64,000 nucleotides of DNA from Candidatus Nealsonbacteria bacterium (GTDB lineage: Bacteria > Patescibacteriota > Minisyncoccia > Minisyncoccales > RBG-13-36-15): the NCBI GenBank assembly GCA_011050465.1, contig DRFQ01000009.1:334-64333 (forward strand), read 5' to 3'. The notes under the pieces are model-generated. The model was not told the origin of the DNA, did no database searches, and was given only the letters and a program-made list of their open reading frames with translations. Both the position numbers and the translations under genes were made by a program. Of this stretch, positions 42,466 to 62,638 are shown piece by piece (position 1 is the first letter of the stretch; each line of letters starts with the position of its first letter).

Positions 42466-42470
42466 AAATT

Positions 42471-44369: not shown

Positions 44370-44375
44370 CTACTT

Positions 44376-45737: not shown

Positions 45738-45748
45738 TCAAAAATATT

Positions 45749-46018
45749 ATGACAAAAATTAAAGTTAAAAAAATAACAGATGGTGACACCTTTCAGGGCA
45801 CAAGGGGTGGATTTTACCGCTTAGCTAATGTTGATGCTCCCGAAAAAAGAGAGCGGGGGTATCAAAAGGCCAAAGAAACCTTAAAAGAACTTATTGAAGG
45901 CGAAAAGCTTATTGTTAAAGTTGAGGGCACATCTTATGGTAGAAAAGTTGCAACCGTCAGAATACCAGGCGAAAAAACGAGTATTAATGAAAAAATGAGG
46001 CGTAGGGGTTATAAATAG
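45749..46018 (+). CDS. Small staphylococcal-nuclease-like (SNase/thermonuclease fold) protein
   Basis: ITDGDTF, YRLANVDAPE and SYGRKVATV match the SNase Ca-binding and catalytic residues. At 89 aa it is shorter than typical SNases. Confidence 0.65.
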   Translation: MTKIKVKKITDGDTFQGTRGGFYRLANVDAPEKRERGYQKAKETLKELIEGEKLIVKVEGTSYGRKVATVRIPGEKTSINEKMRRRGYK

Positions 46019-46193
46019 AATTTCCTCAGGTCGTTTTTAAAATGGTACGTCATACTATCCCAAATGGAACACCCCCTTTCTGTGTCCCATTTGTCCCATT
46101 TTAGCTTAAAAAGCCCCGACCGAGACGCCTAAATGGAACACGGCCAAAATCGCCCAAAACACCCTTAAAACTGGGGTTCAGAACTGAGGTACA

Positions 46194-46225
46194 CAGCCAT
46201 CCTATGCTAAGTCAAGTGACCGAGA
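46194..46225 (+). repeat. Right direct repeat (att-like): cagccatcctatgctaagtcaagtgaccgaga
   Basis: 30/32 match to 37456-37487. Confidence 0.85.
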
Positions 46226-46258
46226 CTTGTTCGATTTGAGTCCTGAGCCAGCAATATA

Positions 46259-47224
46259 ATGATTGATCAACTATCCAATTTAATAGTTAATCTGGACCTT
46301 GTCTTTCTGGCTATTTCGCCAATGGTTTTTGTGTTTAGCGTTACCTTGTTGGGCGACGCTATTGGACATGCGCAACAAGAGGAAAAAGCTGCCAGAGACA
46401 ATGATAAAATCACCATACAAAAAGATATAACAGAGGTGGAAACAGCCTTAGAAGAAACTAAAAGGAAGGGATATATCACCGACAAACTTGATGAAAATTT
46501 AACACGATTACAAAGTAGACGGCAGCAAACTGAAAAGAAAATTAGGGATATAAAAATTAAATATAGCGCTATTGATCTTAGAAATACTGTTGTATATCCT
46601 TGTTTTTCTTTTCTACTCTCTATTTTAATTGACCCGCTTAGAAATCTATCGGGAAATTTTGATATATCTTATTATTTAATTTTCTTTTCACAAACACTTT
46701 TATTTTTATACGGTTTTATAAAAATTTATAAAAGTCTTCAACTCGTACAACAGACAACCACCAAGAAAAAATCTGGAGAATACTTTAGGCATATAAAAAC
46801 AGCTTTTAAAGATGCGCTGGAAGAATATTATCAAAGCACAAAAGAAGAGGTTTCTGTAGAGTTTAAAGATATAGCTTTTCCGTTAAATATAGCGCCGTCA
46901 ACAGAATTAAATATTTTTCTAAGGACGGAGCTAATAAAAGGCTCTCTTCTAAGAAACGCATCTGTATGGTTTTATGTCGCTGATGGCTTAGAGTTAATTG
47001 ATCCTCCCGAAACTAGTAGTTGGAGGCAATCGGCAGACTATAACCCACCAAACATCCGAACAGTTAAAGTTGATCTTGGTGATTTAAGTATAGGTCAATA
47101 TATTCCAAGGACTCTAAAACTTAAAATGCCAACAATTCCAGGAAAATACTTACTTAGATATGTAGTCAAGGGGGATGGTTATTCTGGACCATCAAAAGAT
47201 TTAACATTATTGGTGACTGGATAA
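46259..47224 (+). CDS. Hypothetical membrane protein with coiled-coil and a C-terminal beta-rich domain
   Basis: One N-terminal TM helix, a charged helical segment, two to three TM helices and a C-terminal region of about 120 aa. No motif recognised. Confidence 0.45.
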   Translation: MIDQLSNLIVNLDLVFLAISPMVFVFSVTLLGDAIGHAQQEEKAARDNDKITIQKDITEVETALEETKRKGYITDKLDENLTRLQSRRQQTEKKIRDIKIKYSAIDLRNTVVYPCFSFLLSILIDPLRNLSGNFDISYYLIFFSQTLLFLYGFIKIYKSLQLVQQTTTKKKSGEYFRHIKTAFKDALEEYYQSTKEEVSVEFKDIAFPLNIAPSTELNIFLRTELIKGSLLRNASVWFYVADGLELIDPPETSSWRQSADYNPPNIRTVKVDLGDLSIGQYIPRTLKLKMPTIPGKYLLRYVVKGDGYSGPSKDLTLLVTG

Positions 47225-47352
47225 ATTCGTCCCTGACCGAGACGCGTCAATGAGACACGCCTCAAACCCCCTAATTTCCCCTTAAAACACAGGTTCTAGA
47301 CTAAGGATGTCAGCAACAGTCAGCGCAGTATCGAGGCCGACCGAGAGGCCTC

Positions 47353-47404
47353 AAAATCGCCAACCTGTCCGCCTCTGGAGGAGAAGGCGGTTTTTTGATA
47401 GAAT
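47353..47404 (+). repeat. 52-nt junction module (hairpin terminator plus TGATAGAAT extended -10)
   Basis: aaaatcgccaacctgtccgcctctggaggagaaggcggttttttgatagaat. A 50/52 identical copy lies at 61900-61951. Shorter variants lie at 48873-48903 and 62572-62600. Confidence 0.85.
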
Positions 47405-47410
47405 AGAAAA

Positions 47411-48001
47411 ATGAAACGAGTAAAAATTAACCCACCATATATTCCCTTAACTCAACAGAAATTATGTTGCGTGCCTTGTGCTATTCAGTGGATTTTGTTA
47501 AGAAGGGGTTTGAAATTAGTTGACCAAGAAACAATAGGAAATGCATTAGGTTTAATGGTGCCTAAAAAACACAAGAATTTATTTATTAGTAAGGTAAAAG
47601 TAGGAAAGAAAACTCCAAAAAGAGGCTGGGGAACTAATGAAACAGATGGTTCAAAAATGAACAGGTTTTTCAAAAAACACAGAATTCCGTTACGGGCCAA
47701 GAAGGTTTTTTATTCAGAAATTAAAGACGCGGCAAAGTTGATTATAGAAAGCCTGAAAAAGGGCAATGATTTAATGCCGGTTACTTATATGTCAATAATA
47801 GAACCTAAAGAGAAATATGGACACGCATTATTGATTAGTGAAATTATTTTAAGCAAGAAGCCGAAAGTTATTGTTGGTGACCCTCGTTTTCTTTCAAAAA
47901 AATTCTGGGAAGTTGACTTAGATAGGCTCATTAAAGGAATGAGCAAGAAGTTTGACGGAGAAGAAAGGGGAATATATATTTTTACCAAGCATAAAATATG
48001 A
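47411..48001 (+). CDS. Hypothetical protein, possible papain-like cysteine peptidase fold
   Basis: The Q..CC...C...W near the N-terminus and GHALLI later suggest a Gln/Cys...His arrangement. The evidence is weak. Confidence 0.35.
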   Translation: MKRVKINPPYIPLTQQKLCCVPCAIQWILLRRGLKLVDQETIGNALGLMVPKKHKNLFISKVKVGKKTPKRGWGTNETDGSKMNRFFKKHRIPLRAKKVFYSEIKDAAKLIIESLKKGNDLMPVTYMSIIEPKEKYGHALLISEIILSKKPKVIVGDPRFLSKKFWEVDLDRLIKGMSKKFDGEERGIYIFTKHKI

Positions 48002-48522
48002 AAATATATTTCGCTGCTCACGCAACATCAAAAGATAATGAAGCTGAAATTGCTTCTGGCTGGAAAGATGTTGAGTTGTCTGAATTGGGTATCCAACAAG
48101 CAAAAGAATTAGGCGAGAGGTTTAAAGATATAAAGATAGATTTAATCTGTTGTTCAGATTTAAAAAGGGCTGTAGATACAGTGAAAATAGCGTTTAATGA
48201 CAAATATCCCGTTATTGCAGATAAAAGGCTAAGAGAGCTTAATTACGGTGATCTCAATGGCAAGCCAAGCGAAGTTGTAGGTTATATGAAAAAAGAAAGG
48301 ATAAAAGAGTCCTTTCCTAATGGAGAAAGTTATGAGTTGGCAATGGTTAGAATTCACGAGTTTTATAAAGAGCTAAAAGAAAACCATCCAGAAAAGACAG
48401 TTTTAGTTGTTGGTCATCGTGCTACCCAATTCGGTTTAGATACGCTTGCTGGCGGTAAAACCCTTGAAGATTGCTTAAGCGTGCCATTTAAATGGCAGCC
48501 ATACTGGAAATACGAGTTTTAA
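47998..48522 (+). CDS. Histidine phosphatase (phosphoglycerate mutase) family protein
   Basis: YFAAHATSKDN (AHA in place of the canonical RHG), LSELGIQQA and VVGHRAT. ATGA overlap with the upstream gene. Confidence 0.7.
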   Translation: MKIYFAAHATSKDNEAEIASGWKDVELSELGIQQAKELGERFKDIKIDLICCSDLKRAVDTVKIAFNDKYPVIADKRLRELNYGDLNGKPSEVVGYMKKERIKESFPNGESYELAMVRIHEFYKELKENHPEKTVLVVGHRATQFGLDTLAGGKTLEDCLSVPFKWQPYWKYEF

Positions 48523-48535
48523 TTAAATAAAAAAT

Positions 48536-48856
48536 ATGAAGAAATTTAAAATTAGTAAGATTATTAGAAAAATTAAGAAATCTTGGAAGCCTATTGATGT
48601 AGTTGATTTTAACAACTATACATTAAGAATAGCGTTATTCAAAGGAGAATATCATTGGCATAAGCACGATAAGGAAGATGAATTTTTCTATGTTTATCAG
48701 GGTAAAATTTTAATTGAGACAGAATTAGGGAATATGATACTAAATAAAGGAGAAGGTTGCGTAATTCCCAAAAGAATAAAACATAAACCTTCGTCTAAAG
48801 TGAAATCATATGTGTTTATGATTGAACCAAAGAAATTAGCAAGTAGGGGAGACTAA
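48536..48856 (+). CDS. Cupin-domain protein
   Basis: HWHKHDKEDEFFYVYQGK ... IPKRIKHKP matches the two cupin motifs. Confidence 0.7.
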   Translation: MKKFKISKIIRKIKKSWKPIDVVDFNNYTLRIALFKGEYHWHKHDKEDEFFYVYQGKILIETELGNMILNKGEGCVIPKRIKHKPSSKVKSYVFMIEPKKLASRGD

Positions 48857-48925
48857 TTAAGCATAAGGCAATAAAAATCGCCAAGAAGGCGGTTTTTTGA
48901 TATTCGTCCGAGAGTTGCCTTGGGC

Positions 48926-48954
48926 TTGACTTATTTGCGGCAAATTGATAGATT
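48926..48954 (+). promoter_or_regulatory. Sigma70-like promoter
   Basis: TTGACT (48926-48931), a 17-nt spacer, then TGATAGATT. The SD AAGGAGG precedes ATG 48996. Confidence 0.45.
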
Positions 48955-48995
48955 ATTCTTAGCATCATTTCCAACAAAGAGGTAAGGAGGGTTAA

Positions 48996-49556
48996 ATGAT
49001 GAAGCCTCAAACAATAAAGAGAAGCTCGTTCCTTTATAGATACACAAAATGGCTTTGGGGAAGCTTTATTACTGATACAAACGTTGAAAACACCAAGAAT
49101 GCCTGCAACTTTCTTTGGGGTAGGTTAATTGGTGGAACTTTAATCTTGATATTCGGAAGCATCGTGCTCTTTGGGATAGTAGTTCCCATAGTCTGGTTTC
49201 TCGGCTACCATTTTATCCGCAAAGAAGACAAAAACAAATATACCAAAGACAGGATGTGCTACAATTATAAATTCAACGGGAAGACTTATCAAAGATTCGC
49301 CCCTTGGGAGATAGCAATAGCTATTAGCGTCCTAGGCGCGATTATCTACCTCTCTGCTTTCAATCAGTCTTTGGGAACTGACATTGGTAAGATAACAGGT
49401 CTCGCTGTTGCCTCACTAATCGGCCTCATTCTGATTCTAGCCTTGCTACTTACTGTTTTTTCCAGGGGTTGGAGAAGCACAATTGGCAAAGCCATCAGAG
49501 AAACGACCGCGACAAGACTCAAGAATGCCTGTCCTCCAATTAAATATGTAGATTAA
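48996..49556 (+). CDS. Hypothetical membrane protein
   Basis: Three or four hydrophobic helices. No motif recognised. Confidence 0.45.
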   Translation: MMKPQTIKRSSFLYRYTKWLWGSFITDTNVENTKNACNFLWGRLIGGTLILIFGSIVLFGIVVPIVWFLGYHFIRKEDKNKYTKDRMCYNYKFNGKTYQRFAPWEIAIAISVLGAIIYLSAFNQSLGTDIGKITGLAVASLIGLILILALLLTVFSRGWRSTIGKAIRETTATRLKNACPPIKYVD

Positions 49557-49712
49557 CAAATAGAAAATTACGCGAGCTTATCCTAAAAGCGGTGCGACAT
49601 CAAGTCAAACCGCCTTTTTGTTACTAAACACCCAACAATTCCCTTGATTGTTTCAACACAAGCTCCGGATATTGAACTAATTCTGCCCAGCTAATGGTTC
49701 TAACGTCGTCCA

Positions 49713-49725
49713 AGCCCCGCAGCCA
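49713..49725 (+). repeat. Exact 13-nt copy of the tRNA-Gln 3-prime end (agccccgcagcca)
   Basis: Identical to 37449-37461. It abuts the start of the 147-nt repeat. Confidence 0.8.
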
Positions 49726-49866
49726 AGCACAACTCGGTATCGAGGGCGACCGATTCCCGTACAAAATTGGTTCGAGTCCAGGTGCCGTCGCGGTACTAGA
49801 CCGAGGCGGTTCGAGTCGCAGCCCCCCAGCACCAGTCAGCGCAGTATCGAGGCCGACCGAGAGGCC
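49720..49866 (+). repeat. 147-nt direct repeat, copy A
   Basis: It differs from 51151-51297 at 5 positions by eye. It contains two degenerate tRNA T-arm-like segments (ggttcgagtcc, ggttcgagtcg) and ends in gaccgagaggcc. Confidence 0.9.
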
Positions 49867-50032
49867 TATTTTGAAGCTATTTTCTTGACGGGTCTAGGAC
49901 GTCCTAAACCCGTACCCGTCTAGGAATAGAACTCTACGAACAAAAAAGGAGCAGTTCGAGTAGTAGCGCCAGAGCATTTCTACGGATTTCTTCGGATTTT
50001 AAACTTTCAATTCTTTAATATAATTTATGTAA

Positions 50033-51091
50033 ATGGACAAATTAACTTTTAGAAAAAAGTTGGAAGGTCAATTAGAGCAATTCTACTCTGATGAAATACA
50101 AATCGCACCAACCCCGCAATTTACAAAACTATTGGAAAGGATGAAGTCTTTAACTCTAGCAGGTGGGAAACGATTTCGCCCTTATGTCGCTTTCTTAACC
50201 TACTCTTCATATGGTGGAAAAGATTTCGATAAATTACTACGAGTTGCCCTTTCTTCAGAGCTTCTACATAATTATATATTGATTCACGATGATATCATTG
50301 ATAATGACCTAGAGCGTTATGGGGTGCTAAACATAACCGGGCAATACCTCAAAGATTTTACCTCACTAGAAAATGATTCGGACAGATTAAGACTTGCAGA
50401 AGGAATGGCAATAATAGCGGGTGATATTGGACACTCACTCGCATACAAGAACTTATTAAGTATCGATTCTCTTGATGATAGGGAGAAAAAACAATTATGC
50501 AAGCTCTTAACTAACTGCAACATTGACCTGTTGGCTGGACAACAAATGGATACTCTTAATATTGAATTATTGATTGATGATTTTACATTAGATCGGTTAA
50601 TAACCACCTGCATGCTTAAATCCTCTTCATACTCGACGATAATTCCTATGAAAATGGCTGCGATTCTACTTGATTTAAATAATAGAGAAGTTAAACTAAT
50701 AGAAAAATTTGCCGTTCAGTTCGGAATACTTTACCAACTTGTCGATGACTACTCTGACTATTTTATTAATAAGACCGATTTCAATATAAAGGCCAAATAT
50801 AGAGATTTTAGACAAGGGAAAATAACTCATCCATATTTTGTGGCGCTAGAACTCGCAAGCGAACAGGAACGAGATTTTCTTAAAGAAAATTTTGGAAATA
50901 AAAAAATACCTCAAGACCAATTAGAAAGAGTTACAAATATCTTGCTAAATTGTGGAGCAAAAGACAAGGCGATAGAATTAATTTCCAAATATGCAGTGGA
51001 ATCTCAAAATTGCCTTAACAAATTGAATATTTCTAAGGAAGGAAAAAATCAAATGCTAGGGCTGATTGAGCACTATAAAACTGTTGTTTAA
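50033..51091 (+). CDS. Polyprenyl diphosphate synthase (trans-isoprenyl diphosphate synthase family)
   Basis: First Asp-rich motif LIHDDIIDND and second motif VDDYSD. Confidence 0.8.
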   Translation: MDKLTFRKKLEGQLEQFYSDEIQIAPTPQFTKLLERMKSLTLAGGKRFRPYVAFLTYSSYGGKDFDKLLRVALSSELLHNYILIHDDIIDNDLERYGVLNITGQYLKDFTSLENDSDRLRLAEGMAIIAGDIGHSLAYKNLLSIDSLDDREKKQLCKLLTNCNIDLLAGQQMDTLNIELLIDDFTLDRLITTCMLKSSSYSTIIPMKMAAILLDLNNREVKLIEKFAVQFGILYQLVDDYSDYFINKTDFNIKAKYRDFRQGKITHPYFVALELASEQERDFLKENFGNKKIPQDQLERVTNILLNCGAKDKAIELISKYAVESQNCLNKLNISKEGKNQMLGLIEHYKTVV

Positions 51092-51150
51092 CTTTTTTAG
51101 TATAGGTTACGGTATTTTATTGGTCCGAAATAATTCTCCGAAAATCGTCC

Positions 51151-51297
51151 CAGCCAAGCACAACTCAGTATCGAGGGAGACCGATTCCCGTACAAAATTG
51201 GTTCGAGTCCAGGTGCCGTCACGGTACTAGACCGAGGCGGTTCGAGTCGCAGCCCCGCAGCAACAGTCAGCGCAGTATCGAGGCCGACCGAGAGGCC
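51151..51297 (+). repeat. 147-nt direct repeat, copy B
   Basis: See copy A. Confidence 0.9.
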
Positions 51298-51359
51298 CTT
51301 TGTCTGAGGCGTACAGCCTCGGGGTTTTGTTTCTGTTTTTAGTTTGGTAAAATGAAATA

Positions 51360-54300
51360 ATGGCTAAAATTGTTAAAAATAAATTAGGGAATTTTTTGGC
51401 GATTTGCCTTATCCTTTTGATGGTGGCGGGTTGGATTTTTTCTGGCTGGCCACAAGTGTGGCACGATCCTCCTTTTCCTCCAAAAGTTGAAGACGTACAT
51501 GCTACAACAAGAACAATTGAGCAGCAGATAAATATTATTGACCAGGAGTATGAGTCGGAGGTGCTGGGTTCTTATAAGCCAACCGATAATAGTCTTGGCC
51601 TGATCCGTTGGGATAGTGCCAAATATCCTGGCGCTGTGGTTTATTTTGAAGCAGTAGCAATGGTGTTTGCCGAGACCGATACTGTCAAGGTAGCTCTTTT
51701 TAGCTCTGACGGAACACAAGTTGCAAATAGTGAAGTAACCCATTCTAGCGCTGGTAATTATACAAGAGTAAGATCTAGCGCCCTTACTTTGGGTACGCTC
51801 CCCAATTTGCAGAGCAATACCGATTATTCTGTAAGGGTAAAAGCCGTGAATGATTGGGTTTCGCTCAAAGCCGCCCGCCTCATAATTGTCCAGTCCGACG
51901 GCACAAAAATTACAGATACCGTTACTCAAATTGAAGCTGGGGATAATCAGTCTACGACGGCAACCTCAGGAAGTCCGAGCACCCTTGCAAACCCAAATTA
52001 TTATATGTTTGACAAGGATATGTTTTCAGGAACATACGGGACAGACATTAACGCTTATTTTGAGGCGTCTCTTAAAGCTTCAGCAATACTCTCCGCTGCC
52101 GCTTATTATTTCAACGCCTACGACAGCGGTACCGCCTGGACCAACGCCCCAGCGCAGATGGTTGACGGTTCAACGAGCAACTTCGCGGTAACCGGCGGCT
52201 CCGATGAAAATCAACGCAACACCGCAAGCACGTGCGACGCCACATGCGGTGCAAAAAGCGAGACAATCACAAAAGTGGAATTAAGAGTTTATGCTTGCCA
52301 AGATAACGCTGATAACGGATGGATTACCTTAACCCCGTATTTTTCCGGTTCATCGCAGGGAGACGGGCACACTTGGTCGGCGGTTCCCGACGGGAATAGC
52401 TGTGAAACCGGGGTTGCCGCCTGGAGCCCTTATTTTGACATTACAAGCGATACAAATGCTCCGGGCACTTGGGGATGGAGCGATGTAGAAAACCTTGATG
52501 TTAATGTGTTCGGTGACAGACAGGGAGGAGCCGATGTTATCCACGCGGCGCAAGTCGATATTCAAGTAACGTATGAACCGGGTACAACATCTACCGCATA
52601 CGCAGAGCTTTATAACCGCACCAATAGCGCAGTAGTTGGTAATAGTACTATTTCTGTGAATAGCACTAGTTGGACGCGAGTTCGTGGCGCAAGTGCTTTG
52701 AACTCGTCAGACAACTGGGATATAACCAATGATGATGAATATGAAGTGCGCATTTATTCTTCAAGCGGTTCTGACGCCGCCTATATTGCTAATGCTAAAA
52801 TTGTTATTGAACAGAGTATTTCAGGGGGTATAGATAAACTGGAGACGGTGCATCAGTATAATAATACGTTGGTAAGTCTCGGAGGTGATGTGGTAACTGT
52901 TTATGCTCAATTAACTATTTCAGGAGGTGCTGCCATCTCTGGTAGTAAGCAAAGTACTGGTAGTGGCAGTTATACGCGGTTGAGAAGCAGTGGTTTAACA
53001 TTATCTACTAATGATTTTGATGTTGAGTTAAGCGTGAACGATTCAGCATATACGGAACAAGGATTTATGAACAAATATGATTCTACTAATTGGGTGGGTG
53101 GAACTTTTGTATATTTATTTGAAACAATACTTAAAAATGTTGTTACAGTTAGAGAGGACTCCTCAACTTCCTGGCTTATCATTCAGATATCTGGGCTTGC
53201 TTCTATTATCGCAACTACTACCATTGGTGATGGTACTGACCCCAGTGATTCAACGGTTGCACCGGAAAGCGGGATTACTGATCTTGATGCAGTCACTTTC
53301 GTTACCAACACCGGCACTGATTCCATTACTGCCGTAACCGTTACTCTTGGGGCAGGTGATTCAGATAATTTGAGCGAGGTGCGGATTACAAACGATAATG
53401 GATTAACGACATATTTTTCCGCAATTTCCAGTCCCTCAAGTGACACACTCAATTTTAGCGGTGGCACACCAATACCGGTTACAGCTTCATCAACGCAGTT
53501 TAAGGTCAGAATCACTCCAGAAACTCACGCCAACATGCCAGCTCCCCAGGGAGCAGAATATGCTATAACCGGAACCATTACCGCTTTTACCAGTACCAAC
53601 ACCCAGGCAGGAACAGATACCGGCAGTGCCATGATAACCATTGACAACTTATCGCCCAATAACGCCACATCCACAAGTGGTAGTGTTACTTCAGATACTG
53701 AAATAACAATCAACTGGACGACTTCCAACAGTACCGATTACAATCGCTCAATCGTACTGCGGTGGCAAGCCTCCCTTCCTGGGGCCGATGTGCCAGCAGA
53801 AGGTACTAATTATAGTCTTGATGATACCATTGGCGGAGCAAAGGTGGCTTGTGTAGAGAATACCGGTACTTCTTCTACGGCCTACAGCGGGGTTGATGGT
53901 TCTGGTGCAGATGAGTGTAGCACTACCGCTTTGTCTGTCGGTACGCAATATTCATATAAACATTTTGAGAAGGATGATAACGGAAACTGGAATACAGGAT
54001 TTACGAACGCCAGCTCTCCTTTAACGACAACCGGCGGCGCAACTTTAACCTTTAGTATTTCCGACAACGATATATTCTTTGGTGATTTGAGCGCTTCGGC
54101 GTCTAAATGGGCAGATAATACCGCAGACGGAAGCACTACAGCAGTGGTTGCCCATACGCTCGCCGCCTCAACAAACGTCACCAACGGATACACCATAACC
54201 GTAAACGGAACCACGCTTACTTCGGGTGGTGATACCATTATTGCCATGGCTTCTGAAGCTATTCTTACCACCGGGCAAGAAGAGTTTGGTCTGCGCATTA

Positions 54301-54527: not shown

Positions 54528-54677
54528 TTTATAGGTTTTCCACAACCAGCTTATTGATGTTGTTGCTTGATACTGGTATTCTGTTATAATAAATAAAAAC
54601 CATAAAAAGGTTACGTTTCGTATCAGCCAATATAACTATTCCTTTCCCTTGGTCGATAAGGAATACAAAAACTGCCA

Positions 54678-55817
54678 ATGAACCAACTATATTTTATAAG
54701 AAGAAACATAGATATAAAAAAAGTCCTTACCAGCTTGGGGCTTATTGTCGCAGTGCTGGTGTTGTTGATAGCGCCGCCCGTGCAGATTGCAAGGGCAGCT
54801 ACCTTGCTGAACATGAGAGACACTCTCACTACCGTGAAGGCAAGTACCGTAACTGACCATGAGATTATATTCCGCACGCCAACGGGAGCTGATGAGTCCA
54901 CAGACACCATCATCATTGACATTGGAGCTACCGATACCTCGTGGAATACCAGCAGCTTAGCGATTGGTGACGTGGATTTGGCGCACTCAGCCGGTGCCCA
55001 GAGCGACTGCGACGCTCCAACATTCAGCAACGAGGAGACACTTGCAGCTTCCGCTACCGCCACCGATTGGCAACTGGACTTTGACACCACAAACGATATC
55101 CTTACCTTCACTGCCCCAACAGACGGCGTGGGAGCCGCTGCTATTGCAACTAACGCCTGTGTGCAGATACAGATTGGTACCAATGCTAGTGGAGGATCAA
55201 ACCAGATTACCAACAGCACTGCGGGCAGCAAGAATATAGACATTTTGGGTACCTTTAACGACACCGGTACCATAGTGGTAACGCTCATAGCTGACGATAT
55301 AGTAGTGACAACTGCCACGGTCGTTGCTTCTCTAACGTTTACCGTTGATGATAATGATATCTTTTTTGGCACCTTGGGCGCTGGGGCAGCAAAATGGGCA
55401 GATAATACCGCAGACGGAAGCACTTCGTCAGTCGTTGGCCACACCATGACCGTAGGTACCAACAGTACATCCGGCTACAGTGTTACTTACAACGGTACCG
55501 CGCTCACGTCTGGTTCAGATAAAATTTCCGATAGCGGCAACACCACCATTACCGGAGATGCGGACGGAACTCCCGGCTCAGAGGAGTTTGCCATTGGGGT
55601 TACCGTGAGCGACAACGCGACTATTGCTTCTGGATATGAGCAGGCCTCCAACAACTTCAAGTTTGTTGAAAGCACCACTGCCACACTTGTCTCTGAAACT
55701 ATTCAAACCGCCGCAGAAACAATCTCTGTCTACTACATAACCAACATTGCCGCAAACACCGAGGCCCACATCGACTACACTTCCAACATAACCTACATTG
55801 CAACCGGGAACTTCTAG
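54678..55817 (+). CDS. Secreted surface/fibre-subunit-like protein, paralogous C-terminal domain
   Basis: Signal peptide ending IARA-ATLL. The C-terminal domain (DNDIFFG..KWADNTADGST...TEAHIDYTSNITYIATGNF) aligns with the C-terminus of the 1055-aa protein. Confidence 0.7.
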   Translation: MNQLYFIRRNIDIKKVLTSLGLIVAVLVLLIAPPVQIARAATLLNMRDTLTTVKASTVTDHEIIFRTPTGADESTDTIIIDIGATDTSWNTSSLAIGDVDLAHSAGAQSDCDAPTFSNEETLAASATATDWQLDFDTTNDILTFTAPTDGVGAAAIATNACVQIQIGTNASGGSNQITNSTAGSKNIDILGTFNDTGTIVVTLIADDIVVTTATVVASLTFTVDDNDIFFGTLGAGAAKWADNTADGSTSSVVGHTMTVGTNSTSGYSVTYNGTALTSGSDKISDSGNTTITGDADGTPGSEEFAIGVTVSDNATIASGYEQASNNFKFVESTTATLVSETIQTAAETISVYYITNIAANTEAHIDYTSNITYIATGNF

Positions 55818-55861
55818 GAGCTCTCTTGCTCGATGCCGTGCTGGCGTGATAGCATAACATC

Positions 55862-56959
55862 ATGAAATTTTGGGTACTCATTGGCTTTTTTTTGGCTATT
55901 GGGGTAATGCTTTTACCTCAAGGAGCACAGGCTCTCACCGTTTCCCCGGTGCGGGTGGAACTTGCTGCCGACCCCGGAGCAAACGTGAAAGGCGTGATTT
56001 TGCTTATTAATGAACAGGAAGGAACCAGAACTTTTTATTCTTCTCTTGAAAATTTTGAAGCTCTGGGAGAAACAGGCACACCAACATTTATTGAAAGCGC
56101 AGAAGGACTGGCAACGTGGATTGAAACTGCTTCTCAAGTAACCATAGAGCAAGGAGAGAAAAAAGAAGTTCCCTACACCATTATAGTACCCCAGGACGCT
56201 GACCCCGGAGGCCACTTTGCAGCCATTTTCTGGAGCACTTCTCCTCCCCGAGCAGAAGAGGAAGGAGGGGTTTCTATTGGGGTTAAACTCGGTGTTCTCA
56301 TATTGCTCCGCGTAAGCGGAGAAATAGAAGAGGAAGGAGGACTTCTAGAATTTAACGCTCAAGATAAACAAAGCTTTTTCAGTTCGTTACCCATAACGCT
56401 TACCTACCGTTTTCAAAACGGTGGGGGTGACCGCGTGAAGCCAGAGGGAGAGATAACGATAAAGAATATATTTGGCAGAATCTCAGCTGTTCTCCCAGCA
56501 AACGAATCTGAGGGAAATGTATTGCCCCAGTCTATTCGGAAGTTTCAGGTGACCTGGGATATAACCCAGAAGGAGGGCGAGCTCAATACGAGGCAGGCAC
56601 AAAAGGATGATGAGAAAGTTGGATTTTTTGGAGCAGTCAAAAGACAATGGAGCGATTTTCATTTTGGTAGATATACTACTCAGCTAAACTTAAATTATGG
56701 GGCGGAAAATGAAAAAGCTGAAGCTGGCTTCAGCTTTTTTGTTATTCCCTGGCAGCTTCTGAGTATTATACTTTTTGTGGTGATGGTTGTTGGTCTTCTT
56801 AGTAAAATAGCAATAAAGAGATATAACCAATGGATTATCGCAAGGGCCGTACAGATGCAAGTACCTAAAGAAATCAACACAACCAAAGCGAGGAAGAAAA
56901 TAAAAACAAACCTTCGTAAAAACAAAAGAAGCCAAGTAAAACGAAGTATTAAAAGATGA
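55862..56959 (+). CDS. Signal-peptide protein with two beta-sandwich-like halves, a C-terminal TM helix and a basic tail (DUF916/DUF3324-like, chaperone-like)
   Basis: AQA-LTVSPVRVEL start, PGGHFAAIFW, then a C-terminal TM helix (LLSIILFVVMVVGLL) and a K/R-rich tail. The architecture resembles CscA-type partners of WxL proteins. This is an inference. Confidence 0.55.
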   Translation: MKFWVLIGFFLAIGVMLLPQGAQALTVSPVRVELAADPGANVKGVILLINEQEGTRTFYSSLENFEALGETGTPTFIESAEGLATWIETASQVTIEQGEKKEVPYTIIVPQDADPGGHFAAIFWSTSPPRAEEEGGVSIGVKLGVLILLRVSGEIEEEGGLLEFNAQDKQSFFSSLPITLTYRFQNGGGDRVKPEGEITIKNIFGRISAVLPANESEGNVLPQSIRKFQVTWDITQKEGELNTRQAQKDDEKVGFFGAVKRQWSDFHFGRYTTQLNLNYGAENEKAEAGFSFFVIPWQLLSIILFVVMVVGLLSKIAIKRYNQWIIARAVQMQVPKEINTTKARKKIKTNLRKNKRSQVKRSIKR

Positions 56960-57997
56960 ATGAAGCCTTTTATCAATTACTTTTTATCGCTAATAATTAT
57001 TCTCATTTTCTTAGGTGTAACATCTTTTTTCCATATTCACGCTGCTGAAGAAACTGTTACTATTTCAGCCACCGTAGAAGATTGCGGTAATGACGTTAAA
57101 GGAGGAGATGAACAATGCGATGGCTCTGATTTAAATGGGGAAACTTGTGTGAGCCGTGGTTTTACTGGTGGCACTTTAAGTTGTAACGATAATTGTACTT
57201 TTAATACTTTTGGTTGTAGCTCAGGCGGAGGAGGTGGCGGAGGAGCCTATATTCCGCCTCCGCCGCAAACTGCAGTAAATTTTAGTGGTAGGGCCTATCC
57301 ACTAAGCAAAGTTACCGTTTTAAAGGACGGCCAAGTAGCAATAACCACCATAGCAGGTCCTGATGCAAATTTTTATATTTCATTATCCGGTTTGTCTTCC
57401 GGTAATTATATATTTTCGGTTTATGGTGAGGATAATAAACAAAGACGCTCTAGTTTATTTACATTTCCAGTATTTGTTACCAGAGGTGCCATTACAACTA
57501 TCAGTGGTATTTTTCTTGCACCCACAATTGATGTTGATAAAAGCGAAGTGAAGCGAGGCGACAATATCGCTATTTTCGGGCAGAGCGCGCCTCAAGGCGA
57601 AATTACTATTTCTATTAATTCAGAAGAGGAAATTTTTGTAAAAACTAATACTGATGCAGACGGTATTTATTTATATAATTTCGACACTAGTCCATTAGCG
57701 ATAAGACAACATCTTACCAAATCAAAAGTTGCTGCAGATGGGATTATTAGTTCTTTTAGTAAAACGGTAACTTTTAATGTTGGAACCAAGACAGTTTTCA
57801 AAGAAAAACCAGAATTTTTAAAAGGCGATTTGAATAATGACGGTAGAGTAAACCTTGTTGATTTTTCTATTGCGGCCTATTGGTATAAACGGTCGATCAG
57901 CGCTGAATTTGCCCGAAAGGAAGCCGAGAGGTTAAATAACGACGGCAAAATTGATTTAGTGGATTTTAGTATTATGGCATTTTATTGGACAGGATAA
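56960..57997 (+). CDS. Secreted protein with Cys-rich module, poly-Gly/Pro linker, Ig-like region and C-terminal dockerin-like repeats
   Basis: CGNDVKGGDEQCDGSDLNGETC...C..NC.F..C; GGGGGGGAYIPPPP; GDLNNDGRVNLVDFSI and LNNDGKIDLVDFSI (two EF-hand-like dockerin segments, about 57818-57994). Confidence 0.65.
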   Translation: MKPFINYFLSLIIILIFLGVTSFFHIHAAEETVTISATVEDCGNDVKGGDEQCDGSDLNGETCVSRGFTGGTLSCNDNCTFNTFGCSSGGGGGGGAYIPPPPQTAVNFSGRAYPLSKVTVLKDGQVAITTIAGPDANFYISLSGLSSGNYIFSVYGEDNKQRRSSLFTFPVFVTRGAITTISGIFLAPTIDVDKSEVKRGDNIAIFGQSAPQGEITISINSEEEIFVKTNTDADGIYLYNFDTSPLAIRQHLTKSKVAADGIISSFSKTVTFNVGTKTVFKEKPEFLKGDLNNDGRVNLVDFSIAAYWYKRSISAEFARKEAERLNNDGKIDLVDFSIMAFYWTG

Positions 57998-58023
57998 GAA
58001 CTTCATTTGATTAATATTTCAAT

Positions 58024-58947
58024 ATGCAAAAACCAATAAAATTAAAAACCCCAAATTATTTCCTAATAATATTGCTAGTTTCGGTACTACTTTTTGTTGC
58101 CGGGCAGGTTTTTGCAGCTAGGGTCTTTATAGATTCTAAGAGTCAAGAAATGAAGATAGATGCTCAATTTGAAGCGAGTATTTTTCTCGATACAGAGGAA
58201 GCATATATTAATGCGATAGAAGGAAAGATTATATTTCCAGCAGATTTATTAGAATTAAAAGAAATAAGAGACGGCAATTCTATTGTTAATTTTTGGATTG
58301 AAAGGGCAAGAGTTGAATCTGCGGGACAAGTTATTTTTTCAGGAATTACTCCCGGCGGTTATATAGGAGAGAGGGGTTTAATTTTTTCTATTATCTTTGA
58401 ATCGAAAAAAGAAGGTAGGGGCATAATTGAGATTCATAGCGCCAAAACATTACTTAATGACGGAAAGGGCACAGAGGCGACGGTAACAACTTCTGATTTG
58501 CAATTTCTTATATCTGGGCAAATGTCACCTTCTGAAATTTCAATTCCTGAGATTGTAGATAGCGATTCGCCAGAACCATTTGAGCTAACTATTGCTCAAG
58601 ACTCAGAAATATTTGATGGAAAGTATTTTTTAGTATTTACTGCTCAAGATAAAGGAGCAGGGATAGATCATTACGAAATCTTAGAAGCTAGTCAGCGCGG
58701 TTCTCTGCAAGGCTTAATAAAAAAAGAAGAATGGCAAGGTGGAGAGAGTCCGTACGTTTTGCGGGATCAAAAACTCAAAAGCTATATCTATGTGAAGGCG
58801 ATTGACAGAGCGGGGAACGAAAGGATTGCCACATTGCATCCTCAAAATTCGCTAAAATGGTATGAAAATTATTTCGTTTATATTATAATCATAGTAGGCT
58901 TCGTCGTTATCTATATGCTATGGCGGATTCTAAGAAAAAGAAAATAA
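58024..58947 (+). CDS. Membrane-anchored protein with cohesin-like domain
   Basis: N-terminal signal/TM. A cohesin-like beta domain (FEASIFLDTEEAYINAIEGKIIFPADLLEL). GIDHYEI...AIDRAGNE module. C-terminal TM plus RKRK. Confidence 0.55.
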   Translation: MQKPIKLKTPNYFLIILLVSVLLFVAGQVFAARVFIDSKSQEMKIDAQFEASIFLDTEEAYINAIEGKIIFPADLLELKEIRDGNSIVNFWIERARVESAGQVIFSGITPGGYIGERGLIFSIIFESKKEGRGIIEIHSAKTLLNDGKGTEATVTTSDLQFLISGQMSPSEISIPEIVDSDSPEPFELTIAQDSEIFDGKYFLVFTAQDKGAGIDHYEILEASQRGSLQGLIKKEEWQGGESPYVLRDQKLKSYIYVKAIDRAGNERIATLHPQNSLKWYENYFVYIIIIVGFVVIYMLWRILRKRK

Positions 58948-60722
58948 ATATAGAACAAGGGCATCATTATAAACCCAATAAAAGCACTGAAAAATTTGGC
59001 TTAGGCTTCATTTTTTTATTGGGTATGGTTTTAACGATTATTAATTTGACACTGCCTAATTTTGTATTAGCGGCAGATCTGTATTTTTATCCTTCCGTTG
59101 ATTCTTATAATGTTGGCCAGATTTTTTCTGTTATTGTGTATGTTTCGAGTACTGACCAAACAATGAATGCGGCTTCTGGTGTCGTCTCTTTTCCTAAAGA
59201 CAAATTAAATGTTATTTCTATTTCTAAAAGCGAATCTATCTTTAGCTTATGGGTACAGGAACCAATTTTTTCCAACAGTATCGGCACAATTAATTTTGAG
59301 GGTATAGTGTTGAACCCCGGCTTTATAGGATTAACCGGGAAAATCCTTGCCATAAATTTTAAAGCAAAAAATACTGGAAATGCATCTTTAGCTTTTTCTT
59401 CCGGTTCAGTATTAGCTAATGATGGTAGGGGAACAAGCATATTAGAAGCTATGGATTCTGCAAGCTATACTCTAAACTCAGAAGAAGTTACCTCTCAAGA
59501 TGAGGAAGAAAAAGAGTATATTCCGCCTAAAATTGGAGTACCGATTGCTCCAACGGTTTCTTCATCTACCCATCCCGATTCTGAAAAATGGTATTCAAAT
59601 AATGACCCTGAATTCTACTGGAAACTGCCGTCTGATGTCACTGGGGTAAGCTTCTTGCTTTATAAGAGTTCCATTGCTAACCCAGGACCAATTTCCGATG
59701 GCATAATGGAATCTAAAAAATTTGAAGATATTGATGATGGCGTGTGGTATTTCCATATCCAACTTAAAAATAAATATGGTTGGGGAGAAATTACGCACAG
59801 GAAAGTTTTAATTGATACTGTTCCTCCAGAGTTGTTCGAGATTGAAACCCAAAAAGATGACCCACTAGATCCTCGACCAAAATTTCTTTTTACATCTACA
59901 GATAATACTTCGGGAATTAGTTATTATGAGGTAAAAATTGGCAAGGAATATTCAGAAACAGTATCAGCAGCTGATATAAAAGAAAAACCCTATCAAGTAC
60001 CGCCACAGTCCCCAGGAAAACATTTGATTGAAGTTAAGGCATTCGATAGGGCAGGAAATTTTAGTTCAGATTCGATTGAAATCGAAATTTTACCAATTGA
60101 AGAACCAAGTATTTTGAATTATCCCGAAAGAATTAGAATTGGGGAGATTTTAGAGATTGAAGGAAGGTCGTTACCTGAAACTTCGGTAATAATTTTTATT
60201 CAAAGAGAAGAGAAGGTGCCAATTTTAGAAGAAGTTAAGACTGATTCTCAAGGAGATTGGAAATTTGTTTATGAGAAAGCTTTAGTCCAAGGTAGATATA
60301 GTTTCTGGGCTCAGGCTAAAGACGGGAGAGAAGCATTAAGCTACCCTACTCAAAAATATTTTTTTGAAATTGGCTTACCTCCTTTTTTAAAACTTGGGAA
60401 AATAACAATAGAATATTTAACTACCGTGGTTACTCTATTTATTTTAATCGTTGCAACCGTCGTTATTATCTTTTATGCTTGGTATCGAATTTTACTCTGG
60501 AGGAAAAAACTTAAAACGGAAACTACGGAAGCGGAGAAGGCCCTCCGTAAAGCCTTTAGTTTTTTGAGGAAAAGAATTAACGAACAGATTAGAATGTTCG
60601 ATTCTCGGCCTGGTCTAAGCGGAAAAGAAAGAAGAATTCGAGATAGCTTAGAGGATAGCCTAAAGATTGCCAAAGAAATTGTTGCCAAAGAAATTAAAGA
60701 TATAGAAAAGGAATTAGAGTAA
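58920..60722 (+). CDS. Membrane-anchored protein with cohesin-like domain, Ig-like modules, C-terminal TM and a cytoplasmic coiled-coil tail
   Basis: FSVIVYVSSTDQTMNAASGVVSFPKDKLNV is cohesin-like. GISYYEV...AFDRAGN is the same module as in the previous gene. TM helix VVTLFILIVATVVIIFYAW. It overlaps the previous gene by 28 nt, and the start is uncertain. Confidence 0.55.
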   Translation: MADSKKKKINIEQGHHYKPNKSTEKFGLGFIFLLGMVLTIINLTLPNFVLAADLYFYPSVDSYNVGQIFSVIVYVSSTDQTMNAASGVVSFPKDKLNVISISKSESIFSLWVQEPIFSNSIGTINFEGIVLNPGFIGLTGKILAINFKAKNTGNASLAFSSGSVLANDGRGTSILEAMDSASYTLNSEEVTSQDEEEKEYIPPKIGVPIAPTVSSSTHPDSEKWYSNNDPEFYWKLPSDVTGVSFLLYKSSIANPGPISDGIMESKKFEDIDDGVWYFHIQLKNKYGWGEITHRKVLIDTVPPELFEIETQKDDPLDPRPKFLFTSTDNTSGISYYEVKIGKEYSETVSAADIKEKPYQVPPQSPGKHLIEVKAFDRAGNFSSDSIEIEILPIEEPSILNYPERIRIGEILEIEGRSLPETSVIIFIQREEKVPILEEVKTDSQGDWKFVYEKALVQGRYSFWAQAKDGREALSYPTQKYFFEIGLPPFLKLGKITIEYLTTVVTLFILIVATVVIIFYAWYRILLWRKKLKTETTEAEKALRKAFSFLRKRINEQIRMFDSRPGLSGKERRIRDSLEDSLKIAKEIVAKEIKDIEKELE

Positions 60723-60857
60723 ATTAGGATCTGAAGCCAACATCATATAGTTTGCCAAAATTAAACCTGCTATAATCAAAGCAGGTTTAAAGTCTACCTG
60801 AAATGTTAATTATATGCCAAAACCGGCACCTCAAAATACTCTTTGGTATTCATAAAA

Positions 60858-60888
60858 TAGGTTCGAACAGCGTTCACGCCCCGCAGCA
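60858..60888 (+). pseudogene. Degenerate copy of the tRNA-Gln 3-prime half (taggttcgaa...gccccgcagca)
   Basis: It shares taggttcgaa and gccccgcagc with tRNA-Gln 37438-37461, but the T stem is disrupted. It marks the far end of the accessory region. Confidence 0.55.
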
Positions 60889-60993
60889 CTTCGACAAGCT
60901 CAGTGCAGGCCACCTTGAGCGCAGTATCGAGGCCGACCGTGAGGGCTTCCCGTTAGGGCGACCGAGATGGATATAAGTAAAAAAAATCGCTAG

Positions 60994-61767
60994 ATGAACG
61001 ATTTTTTGTTAGGATTAAGATATATGGCAGACGAAGAAATTGAGAAACATAAAATAGCAGCCAAAAAATTAGAATTGGTTAAAAATGAAGCGCTTCGGTT
61101 TATTAAAAGGAACCTTGGCCAGGTTTCTGAATATGATGTTCACGAATTTATTCTTTCAGAGTTTAGAAAGAAAAATTTAATAACCGATAGAAATAATCCC
61201 ATTCAGATCGTGGCCGTTGATCAAGATACAGCAATTGTTCATTATTTTCCGCCAAAAAGAAAATCAAAAATTATCAAAAAGAATAATTTAATTTTAATCG
61301 ATATTTGGGCAAAATTAAAAGAGAAAAACGCTCCCTTCGCTGATATCACTTGGATAGCTTATTCTGGAACAGATATACCAAAAGCTATTGAGAAGATTTT
61401 CAATAAAGTGATTACTGCCCAAGATGTCGCTTTAAATTTTATTAAGGAAACTTTAAAGAACAAAAAACTTCCCAAAACAAAGAATGTTGATGAAGCGGCA
61501 AGGAATTATTTTAAGAAATTTGCTTTAGAAAAATATTTTCTTCACGGCTTAGGCCATAGTTTGGGAATTACCGAGTGTCATGGAAAATATTTCCGTTTTG
61601 GGGAGAAAAGTAAGGCTAAATTAAAATCAGGTATTCCGTTTACTATTGAGCCTGGGCTTTATTTTAAAAATAAGTTCGGAATTAGAAGCGAAATCGATTG
61701 TTATATAACTAAAGATTTTAAGCTAATTATAACTACCGAAGTCCAAAAAAAGATAGTCAAAATTTAA
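60994..61767 (+). CDS. M24-family metallopeptidase (Xaa-Pro/creatinase fold), short form
   Basis: HGLGHSLG, FTIEPGLY and the SEIDCYIT region are pita-bread fold metal ligand motifs. Confidence 0.7.
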   Translation: MNDFLLGLRYMADEEIEKHKIAAKKLELVKNEALRFIKRNLGQVSEYDVHEFILSEFRKKNLITDRNNPIQIVAVDQDTAIVHYFPPKRKSKIIKKNNLILIDIWAKLKEKNAPFADITWIAYSGTDIPKAIEKIFNKVITAQDVALNFIKETLKNKKLPKTKNVDEAARNYFKKFALEKYFLHGLGHSLGITECHGKYFRFGEKSKAKLKSGIPFTIEPGLYFKNKFGIRSEIDCYITKDFKLIITTEVQKKIVKI

Positions 61768-61899
61768 CCCAAAATGAGATACCAAAATATACCCTTAAGG
61801 ACTGTTTCATTTGTCTCATCCCGGCCCTCTATGCTGTATGTTTATCTATTTGCTTAGAGGGCGGGACACCCCGGCCGAGCCGCGTTATTTACGAACTTT

Positions 61900-61951
61900 A
61901 AAATCGCCAACCTGTCCGCCTGTGGAGGAAAAGGCGGTTTTTTGATAGAAT
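61900..61951 (+). repeat. 52-nt junction module, second copy
   Basis: 50/52 identical to 47353-47404. Confidence 0.85.
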
Positions 61952-61962
61952 TAAATAGAATT

Positions 61963-62538
61963 ATGAAAATATCAAAGGCAGAATTTGTTAAAGGTGTTAT
62001 AGGGAACGATTACAGCCTGGAAGGCAATTTACCGCACGTCGCTTTTTTTGGCCGTTCCAATACGGGGAAATCAAGCGTGATTAACTCTTTAGTCGGCAAA
62101 AAAGATCTTGTAAGAACAAGCAAGATGCCGGGGAAAACACGAGAAGCGAATTTTTTCCGCATCAATGATTCTTTCTATTTTGTGGATTTTCCCGGATATG
62201 GATATGCAATGCGTTCGAAACTGGAGCGCAACAAAATAATCAAAAGGATTTTTTGGTATGTGGAGTTTTCCAATACGAGGCCCAAAGCAGTTTTCTTAAT
62301 TATTGACGCTCAGGTTGGTTTGACTGATTTCGATCGGGATATGATAAAAATTCTCGAGGCAAATAAACATCAAATTGTCATCATTGCAAACAAAATTGAT
62401 AAATTAACTAAAGACGCCGCGGGAGAACAGCTTTCCTCGATTCAAAAAGAAGTGCGAGATATACCGGTTTTGGGATATTCGGCCAAAACAAACGAAGGGA
62501 AAAACGAATTAACTAAAAAAATTGCGAGTTTTGTATAA
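61963..62538 (+). CDS. engB: Ribosome-biogenesis GTPase EngB/YsxC
   Basis: G1 GRSNTGKSS, TSKMPGKTR, DFPGYGY and NKIDK. ATG 61963 is preferred over the track start 61942. Confidence 0.88.
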   Translation: MKISKAEFVKGVIGNDYSLEGNLPHVAFFGRSNTGKSSVINSLVGKKDLVRTSKMPGKTREANFFRINDSFYFVDFPGYGYAMRSKLERNKIIKRIFWYVEFSNTRPKAVFLIIDAQVGLTDFDRDMIKILEANKHQIVIIANKIDKLTKDAAGEQLSSIQKEVRDIPVLGYSAKTNEGKNELTKKIASFV

Positions 62539-62609
62539 AATAAGCTGACCGAGCCGCGATTTACGAATTTTAAAATCGTCAATCTGGCGATTTTTTGATA
62601 TCCAAAAAC

Positions 62610-62638
62610 TTGACAAATTCAGAGAGATATGCTATGGT
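62610..62638 (+). promoter_or_regulatory. Sigma70-like promoter
   Basis: TTGACA (62610-62615), a 17-nt spacer, then TATGGT. Confidence 0.35.

Follow-up and report, generated by a model that had tools for sequence, protein, structure and literature searches.

Genomic islands which are anchored at tRNA genes and retain partial tRNA copies as scars are already classic. Composite islands of the staphylococcal cassette chromosome (SCC) are tandem arrays at one site that are linked to a large serine recombinase (LSR), with short repeated attachment (att) cores and many recombinase-less units, and integrons have a fixed anchor site followed by short, co-oriented and mostly single-gene units between related sites of 60-150 nucleotides (nt), the content of which varies among relatives. 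In the tycheposons of Prochlorococcus, partial tRNA copies represent att scars across the island, and an LSR is present in 27 of 937 elements (Hackl et al., bioRxiv 10.1101/2020.12.28.424599). Tycheposon islands have the full-length tRNA in proximal position and partial copies inside; each new integration displaces older material outward, the elements being degenerate or devoid of an integrase, and the host genome is streamlined. Here we report on a locus of Candidatus Nealsonbacteria, a member of the candidate phyla radiation (CPR, Patescibacteria), which resembles each of these systems in the traits named. In the window, i.e. the whole stretch of 64,000 nt that was analysed (contig DRFQ01000009.1, positions 334 to 64,333), a tRNA-Gln gene is followed by gene units separated by junctions that resemble the end of this tRNA. 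We consider it probable that the region from 37,388 to ~62,600 is an additive, tRNA-Gln-anchored island which arose from serial site-specific integration at the 3' end of the gene. In the literature searched, we found no description of a co-oriented array of cassette-sized units that is linked to a single, highly conserved LSR and a single tRNA and recurs across the CPR.

The heptamer GACCGAG occurs twelve times in the window, always on the plus strand (2.82 expected; none of 100 shuffled sequences reached 12), and 11 of the 12 copies lie between 37,480 and 62,553. A first-pass annotation had described co-oriented gene units separated by related junction modules; the nine GACCGAG positions it listed for them are all exact, and its units match the list of open reading frames (ORFs) of the window. 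Two further copies are located at 49799 and 51230, and the isolated upstream copy starts at 25949 (not 25948), within a 452-aa ORF on the minus strand. A longer motif, GCGCAGTATCGAGGCCGACCGAGAGGCC, is present at 47324, 49840 and 51271, with a variant at 60920. The spacer 48857-48995 is devoid of GACCGAG, and the spacer 61768-61962 has GGCCGAG in its place. By self-BLAST and repeat finding, junction-related sequences were restricted to 37.4-62.6 kb. A profile search with the junction copies detected no module in the first 37.3 kb of the window and none in the 9.2 kb past 62553, taken from a longer contig of the same strain. Modules being absent from these 46.5 kb of flanks, the pattern is not that of dispersed repeats of the REP (repetitive extragenic palindrome) or MITE (miniature inverted-repeat transposable element) kind, nor that of generic terminators. 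The array and its restriction to this locus, both proposed in the first-pass annotation, are thus borne out. Its borders, given there as 46118-62553, hold on the distal side, where the array ends at ~62,600; the start has to be moved to the tRNA-Gln gene at 37,388, because the series begins at this real tRNA. The array hence covers 37.4-62.6 kb rather than 46.1-62.6 kb and includes the recombinase island.

That the junctions originate from tRNA-Gln had been missed. The first GACCGAG lies 19 nt beyond the 3' end of tRNA-Gln(CTG) (37388-37461), and every junction aligns to a tRNA-Gln 3' half (from the T-loop GGTTCGA to the acceptor strand CCCCGCAGC) plus a trailer of ~25-30 nt that ends in GACCGAGA. 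The left half of a junction (GGTTC…CAGC) is provided either by the tRNA-Gln gene itself (its 3' half, B) or by a mimic that the element carries (P). The right half is the conserved stretch of ~25-30 nt, of which there are two types: T1 (AGTCAGCGCAGTATCGAGGCCGACCGAGA) follows intact tRNA-Gln genes, and T2 (ATCATATGCTAAGTCAGGTGACCGAGA) is found at the end of the recombinase-bearing element. The commonest left-half mimic is the A-module (GGTTCTAGACCGAGGATGCCAGC), which spans ~105 nt and contains three direct GACCGAG copies, one of them within its pseudo T-arm (GGTTCTA-GACCGAG-GATGCCAGC); longer mimic families exist, e.g. GGTTCTAACGTCGTCCAAGCCCCGCAGC. All four combinations of left and right halves were seen, joined at the shared CAGC, and by sequence logic only they can be labelled attB-like (tRNA/T1), attL (tRNA/T2), attR (A/T1) and attP-like (A/T2). 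The junctions are best read as att-type hybrids of two exchanged half-sites which copy the tRNA-Gln 3' end, with the putative exchange point at the shared CAGC, that is, at the 3' end of the tRNA. GACCGAG would therefore be the outer conserved part of the right half-site, roughly a mirror of the T-loop GGTTC on the left. T1 shows a short inverted repeat, AGGCC-GACCGAGA-GGCCT, around an 8-nt spacer, and T2 does not. The array is composed as follows (J, junctions; E, units):

37388-37461, plus strand: tRNA-Gln(CTG), anchor of the array, directly after ftsE-ftsX (ARAGORN and Rfam; FtsE/FtsX by Pfam)
37437-37487, plus strand: J0, real tRNA 3' half joined to T2, attL-like (repeat family D3)
38299-39615, minus strand: LSR of 438 aa, reading toward the tRNA/T2 end (Pfam domains, translation)
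39817-46018, plus strand: cargo of unit E1, with LexA-family repressor, type I methyltransferase, OLD/AriA/GajA-like ATPase, type I specificity subunit and a small SNase-like ORF
46093-46225, plus strand: J1, an A-module with GACCGAG at 46118 and a degenerate pseudo T-arm (GGTTCAGAACTGAGG), followed directly by a T2 with GACCGAG at 46218 (nhmmer A-module profile, E=1e-18; repeats D3/D5)
46259-47224, plus strand: unit E2, a single 321-aa ORF with unassigned function and no recombinase, T2 on its left and an A-module on its right
47213-47352, plus strand: J2, A-module (GACCGAG at 47235) joined to T1 (GACCGAG at 47339), attR-like (nhmmer, E=2e-40)
47353-47404, plus strand: terminator hairpin and the -10-like box TTGATAGAAT, a 96% copy of 61900-61951 (repeat D6)
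47411-49556, plus strand: unit E3, with a 196-aa ORF, histidine phosphatase, cupin and a 186-aa ORF
49696-49977, plus strand: J4, a stack of three pseudo tRNA 3' halves (GACCGAG at 49799 and 49855) followed by T1 and a native-type tRNA-Gln trailer
50033-51091, plus strand: unit E4, polyprenyl synthase
51121-51297, plus strand: J5, a copy of J4 (GACCGAG at 51230 and 51286)
51360-60722, plus strand: unit E5, six ORFs (1055, 379, 365, 345, 307 and 600 aa) with Ig-like and dockerin hints only
60860-60967, plus strand: J6, a long pseudo 3' half (GGTTCGAACAGCGTTCACGCCCCGCAGC), a T1 variant (GACCGTGA) and then GACCGAGA at 60960; 99% identical to L198
60994-61767, plus strand: M24 peptidase unit, with a 62%-identical homologue after a junction in L168
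61866-61951, plus strand: J7, a degenerate junction (GGCCGAGCCGCGTTATTTACGAAC…) with a terminator/-10 piece; 61875-61914 matches 62549-62586
61963-62538, plus strand: EngB/YsxC GTPase unit (above the NCBIfam equivalog cut-off)
62547-62600, plus strand: J8, distal end of the array (GACCGAGCCGCGATTTACG… and terminator)

Copies of these junctions in other loci (denoted here by L numbers) are closely similar: J2 is 82% identical over 104 nt to a module in the Nealsonbacteria genome L095 and up to 93% identical to metagenome copies, and within J4, positions 49808-49924 match the end of the genuine tRNA-Gln gene of L106 (3' half and trailer) with 89% identity over 119 nt. Direct repeats of 147 nt (49720-49866 and 51151-51297, repeat D2), 97% identical to each other, enclose the polyprenyl synthase unit. 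Conservation often continues far beyond the core: ~165 nt after T1 are kept across species (window 49867-49977, L106 1623-1760 and 42 metagenome copies), both after real tRNA-Gln genes and inside arrays. This longer trailer contains TATTTTGAAGCTATTTTC, the palindrome TAGGACGTCCTA, repeated GTCTAGGA, a CCGAAC-TTT-GTTCGG hairpin and a terminator. A structured small RNA is not supported by the alignment of the 42 copies, in which only isolated compensatory changes and many one-sided mismatches were seen by eye; with covariation so scant in this inspection, constraint on the trailer seems to act at the level of DNA. Many junctions are equipped with a terminator and -10-like box of their own, and similar terminator/TTGATAGAAT-like pieces are also located between other genes of L095.

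The first-pass annotation had called the array integron-like, noting itself that no IntI-type integrase is present. Folding of four junctions as single-stranded DNA, in both strands, gave z-scores from -1.20 to +1.46 relative to shuffled sequences, i.e. no excess, and attC-like folding was rejected, the values being within the shuffled range. Instead, the junctions are direct tRNA-Gln copies or mimics. Rfam searches of the window with gathering as well as permissive thresholds returned four real tRNAs only, with no tRNA pseudo-hit or known RNA in the junctions; since even the permissive search found none, A-modules as whole tRNA pseudogenes were dismissed. The 3' end of the tRNA itself differs with the type of trailer: CCA is encoded before T2 (GCAGCCA, window 37459-37466), and it is absent before T1 (GCAGCAC, L106 1589-1596). 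Integration of an LSR element would therefore alter how the tRNA 3' end is made.

The LSR of unit E1 combines Resolvase (PF00239), Recombinase (PF07508) and Zn_ribbon_recom (PF13408) domains, and its catalytic motifs (ARKS29T…Q and DRLSR) are intact. Among curated models, CcrB, XisF, CcrC and CcrA match it best, each below threshold, and the nearest solved structure is that of the SPbeta LSR. Relatives with 77-93% identity form >120 clusters (at 90% identity) across CPR classes, with hosts among the Nealson-, Portnoy-, Staskawicz-, Nomura-, Shapirobacteria and other groups. For comparison, FtsX is ~53% identical between Nealsonbacteria species; conservation of the LSR so far above that of core proteins suggests that its gene is mobile. 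We could place the LSR (≥77% identity) in nine independent contexts (window, L215, L217, L218, L220, L222, L245, L246 and L247), and in nine of nine it reads toward a T2 situated ~0.1-2.9 kb beyond its 3' end. The left partner of T2 is a directly joined real tRNA-Gln in five of them (window, L217, L218, L222, L247), tRNA-Trp in one, a pseudo half ~110 nt past a real tRNA-Gln in one, and pseudo halves only in the remaining two. In L225, an A-type mimic forms the far end of an LSR element; except for this case, no A-type right end was found within 10-13 kb of other LSR loci. Given the LSR-T2 linkage and the far end in L225, the autonomous element would therefore consist of T2, LSR, cargo and A-module, and its attP would be A/T2. 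Six units of 0.7-5 kb (E2 of the window and five elsewhere) are bounded by T2 and an A-module without containing an LSR. Among viral contigs, the LSR search yielded one useful provirus fragment (L222), and scans with T1 and T2 patterns gave chance coding matches only. The half-site length geometry (left 23 vs 28 nt, right 20 vs 24 nt), determined by hand, is suggestive but too ambiguous to be used.

In L220 (11353-11425), an LSR of the same family (79% identity) adjoins tRNA-Trp with a T2-like trailer (GTGACAAGTCAGGTGACCCTGAGA), which suggests that the family has switched its target tRNA. Between its LSR and T2, L215 (12245-13625) has genes for a reverse transcriptase and a bAvd-like protein that resemble components of a diversity-generating retroelement, and the LSR-linked region of L220 includes a reverse transcriptase gene as well. 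Type I restriction-modification genes are found in several other LSR contexts, too. In E1 of the window, the OLD/AriA/GajA-like AAA ATPase gene (42456-44369) lies between the type I methyltransferase and specificity genes, and the unit is without an HsdR gene.

The modules are not confined to one species. In a scan of a genome collection with GTATCGAGGNCGACCGA, the real ones among the matches listed were only L095 and L106, the rest being chance hits in high-GC genomes. In L106 (Ca. Nealsonbacteria), FtsE-FtsX (66% and 53% identical to the window proteins) is followed by tRNA-Gln and T1; a single GACCGAG is present within 8 kb, and none of the genes further downstream is related to the window genes. 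In L095, an A/T1 module is located after xseB. When metagenomes were scanned with a T1 21-mer, 79 stretches were returned, of which two were high-GC chance hits and 77 were genuine low-GC CPR sequences (one of them a copy of L095). Modules are thus known from 76 further metagenome stretches and the two Nealsonbacteria genomes, and the order FtsEX-tRNA-Gln is kept in 13 related loci. The non-redundant junctions comprise T1 joined to a real tRNA-Gln (22; CTG or TTG, in two syntenies, FtsEX and CysS/GtrA/DnaX), T1 joined to a pseudo half (66; at least four mimic families), T2 joined to a pseudo half (9) and T2 joined to a real tRNA (5). In the metagenome stretches, GACCGAG was counted 195 times on the strand of the cores vs 6 times on the opposite one, where ~9 per strand would be expected. 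Cores are co-oriented in all multi-copy contigs, and past the first core 174 of 206 ORFs (84%) are co-oriented with it (32 opposite). The distance between junctions has a median of 1.1 kb (range 0.5-8.9 kb). A full-length tRNA in proximal position with partial copies inside, as in the window, was also seen in L148, L167, L174, L194, L195, L196 and L200.

Gene families such as NUDIX, EngB and cupin follow junctions amid different neighbours, and the content of the arrays differs strongly among relatives. The closest relative found is represented by L150/L207 (FtsE 72%, FtsX 66% identical), where FtsX is followed by tRNA-Gln, a 311-aa ORF, A/T1, a small ORF, a junction ending in GACCGAGCCGCC and a homologue of window positions 62609-62714. 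The common flanks therefore enclose 1.8 kb in L150/L207 vs 25.1 kb in the window. In L154, the cupin gene (97% nt identity) lies between A/T2 and A/T1, with the region upstream of the 1055-aa ORF following directly; the histidine phosphatase, the 186-aa ORF and the polyprenyl synthase unit are absent from that place. The unit order of L198 also differs from that of the window. Homology of the EngB unit to L139, L153 and L211 (89-93% at the nt level) stops at ~62542-62558, at or next to GACCGAG, and the sequences differ thereafter. Comparison of cassette content among relatives, recommended in the first-pass annotation, thus revealed variation in both size (1.8 kb in L150, 25 kb in the window) and unit order (L154). 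Duplications are found as well. In L167 (58-5980), a three-gene unit of 1943 bp is present twice in tandem after tRNA-Gln(TTG), and a degenerate junction bounds each copy. L139 has two EngB/YsxC copies in one array (218-814 and 4280-4876; 88% and 77% identical to the window protein) with DEAD-box helicase and TypA/BipA genes between them; housekeeping-type genes are therefore duplicated within arrays.

Two further observations concern the distal part of the window. Unit E5 has a GC content of 44-51% over ~51-56 kb, which then drops to 35-41%. The 3' ends of its 1055-aa and 379-aa ORFs (54023-54527 and 55310-55817) are paralogous (63% identity over 527 nt, rising to 87% in the last 89 nt), and the two proteins, neither of which has a Pfam match, have a common C-terminal domain. 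Just past the array, positions 62609-62782 are conserved but non-coding: a promoter-like pair (TTGACA…TATGGT) precedes a long hairpin (GAGAGAGCGG…GACGGCTCTCTC), and the stretch is 82-84% identical in L150, L207 and L195. It has no Rfam match, no known RNA being detected at 62540-63300, and may represent a small RNA or a leader for an 85-aa ORF.

How would such an array arise? Repeated integration at the tRNA-Gln 3' end would stack units, with older material further out. Unit E1 (37.46-46.2 kb) would be an integrative element with LSR, LexA-family repressor and type I methyltransferase/specificity cargo, ending in T2 beside the LSR and in the A-module at the other side, and it would sit before the older, recombinase-less E2, which has the same kinds of ends. 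According to this proposal, J0 would be the attL of E1, J1 an attP-like join between two tandem units, in which P of E1 meets P' of E2, and J2 the attR of E2 on a T1 half; E3-E7 would follow with other mimic families, out to J8. The series tRNA/T2 (J0), A/T2 (J1) and A/T1 (J2) is like the tandem attL-E1-attP-E2-attR arrays known e.g. from SXT/R391. Those, however, use tyrosine integrases and involve elements of ~100 kb, whereas E2 is 1.1 kb long and has no recombinase. The nearby serine recombinase, already singled out in the first-pass annotation as the only active-looking one, is the best candidate enzyme and presumably catalyses the integration events: it is complete with its catalytic serine, its gene lies beside one att end, and the att sites are related as exchanged half-sites, as in other LSR elements. 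Recombinase-less units would be mobilised in trans rather than being decayed remnants, and attL would be reused as a target.

The locus also departs from each of its closest counterparts. In contrast to the tycheposons, the site-linked enzyme is an LSR and does not belong to the clade of tyrosine recombinases found in those elements, tRNA-Gln of CPR bacteria serves as the target, the repeat reaches ~30 nt (often ~165 nt) past the tRNA, units are mostly ~1 kb in size and single-gene, and the junction modules are highly conserved across classes. As regards SCC, CcrB is the best curated match of the LSR, but the 130.7 bits are far below the CcrB cut-off of 900, the target is a tRNA gene end and not rlmH, the left att half mimics a tRNA T-arm, and the units are much smaller. 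Unlike in integrons, the array is without IntI, its junctions are direct tRNA-derived repeats rather than imperfect palindromes and show no excess folding, and many units have their own terminator and -10-like box. With two defining features of integrons, IntI and attC folding, absent, the array does not qualify as a member of that family.

Several points weigh against serial LSR-catalysed integration. A recombinase is missing from ~76 of the 77 stretches, many of which are short, and the only LSR, in L172, has 60% identity and no recognisable T2. LSRs normally do not reuse attL, yet tandem accretion needs that or something similar. Repetition of T1 with its ~165-nt trailer within single arrays is not predicted by serial integration into one attB. 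Some breakpoints coincide with GACCGAG and not with CAGC (the end of the window EngB unit vs L139, and the starts of A-modules), and the conserved sequence of the A-module, with its three GACCGAG copies, exceeds by ~80 nt what an LSR requires for an attP arm. These last three features leave room for homologous recombination or another enzyme. In the source population, neither excised circles nor empty-site reads nor polymorphism among strains came to light: the order is the same in every contig that has an identical FtsX, 321-aa ORF, polyprenyl synthase or M24 peptidase, no strain-level presence/absence of E1 was seen, and none of the contigs was circular. A Logan contig of 1371 bp with the polyprenyl synthase only is not a circular cassette but reflects an assembly break in the repeats. 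It should also be borne in mind that the unit orders stem from short-read metagenome assemblies, which may be chimeric at such repeats.

The reading closest to ours would make the locus an integron-like capture platform, in which the ~1-kb units are functional one-site mobile cassettes, inserted and excised at tRNA-Gln by a trans-acting LSR; the two overlap, the sole difference being that the small units are functional cassettes and not remnants. CPR/Patescibacteria would then own a gene-capture system based on an LSR instead of IntI, whose small, non-autonomous and typically single-gene cassettes of ~1 kb, with a tRNA-Gln-mimic left arm and a right arm ending in GACCGAGA, move defence and housekeeping-type genes (EngB, TypA, DEAD-box helicase, polyprenyl synthase) between lineages. 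The short spacing of 1.1 kb in the median, the co-orientation of 84% of ORFs, the prevalence of single-gene units, the T2 and A-module ends kept by the six LSR-less units, the NUDIX, EngB and cupin families behind junctions with varying neighbours, and the polyprenyl synthase gene between its nearly identical 147-nt repeats all agree with this. No circular cassette was seen, however, many junctions have their own terminator and -10-like box, and LSRs act in one direction (attP x attB), which sets them apart from exchange between attC and attI; the junctions also are without hairpin structure. We put this forward as a tentative possibility. Homologous recombination alone is rather unlikely to account for the array. 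In such a scheme, after a few founding integrations, the modules of 100-270 nt would serve as portable homology for RecA-mediated loop-out, capture and unequal crossing-over between genomes, possibly after DNA uptake and without a dedicated recombinase. Modules that are 90-99% identical across species over 100-170 nt would suit it, as would the T1-plus-trailer repeats within single arrays, the tandem 1943-bp unit of L167, the 147-nt repeats J4 and J5, and the lack of a recombinase in most arrays. It leaves unexplained, though, why all left halves are mimics of the T-arm and acceptor strand of a tRNA, why left and right halves form clean 2x2 recombinants at CAGC, and why LSR and T2 are linked in nine of nine contexts.

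T-loop sublocations of tRNA genes are classic targets of tyrosine integrases; an enzyme of this class was considered too, either as an integrase lost from the array or as the chromosomal Xer-like protein encoded at 6510-7388. GACCGAGA would then be a 7-8-bp overlap flanked by AGGCC and GGCCT, in line with the T1 inverted repeat and with the several breakpoints that fall exactly at GACCGAG. T2 is without this symmetry, though, and a phmmer probe with XerD detected no tyrosine recombinase in the 431 ORFs of 79 array-bearing loci (the 77 stretches, L095 and L106). The Xer-like protein of 293 aa is the single tyrosine recombinase in the window; it is encoded 30 kb upstream of the array, matches XerD/XerC best, below cut-offs, and scores 49.6 bits against the integron integrase model TIGR02249 (cut-off 265). 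We regard involvement of such an enzyme as quite improbable. Hardly any weight is left for the junctions being ordinary intergenic punctuation, i.e. terminators, promoters or tRNA-like signals for RNA processing that play no part in rearranging DNA, which the first-pass annotation had named, for genome-wide terminators or promoters, as the outcome that would speak against an array. Some junctions do contain a hairpin, a T-run and TTGATAGAAT, and similar pieces lie between other genes of L095. This explanation is nevertheless largely refuted by the absence of modules from the 46.5 kb of flanks in the same genome, by the lack of RNA family matches and tRNA pseudo-hits, by folding energies not above those of shuffled controls, by the weak trailer covariation (by eye) and by unit content that differs greatly between relatives.

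If serial integration at tRNA-Gln is correct, it would offer a tangible mechanism by which the streamlined, unculturable CPR bacteria could exchange genes as heavily as has been reported. Translation-type genes appear among the transferred genes of CPR bacteria (PMC12455944), and the array model could explain their presence there. Candidate attB and attP sequences are herewith supplied for an LSR that is native to organisms currently without genetic tools.

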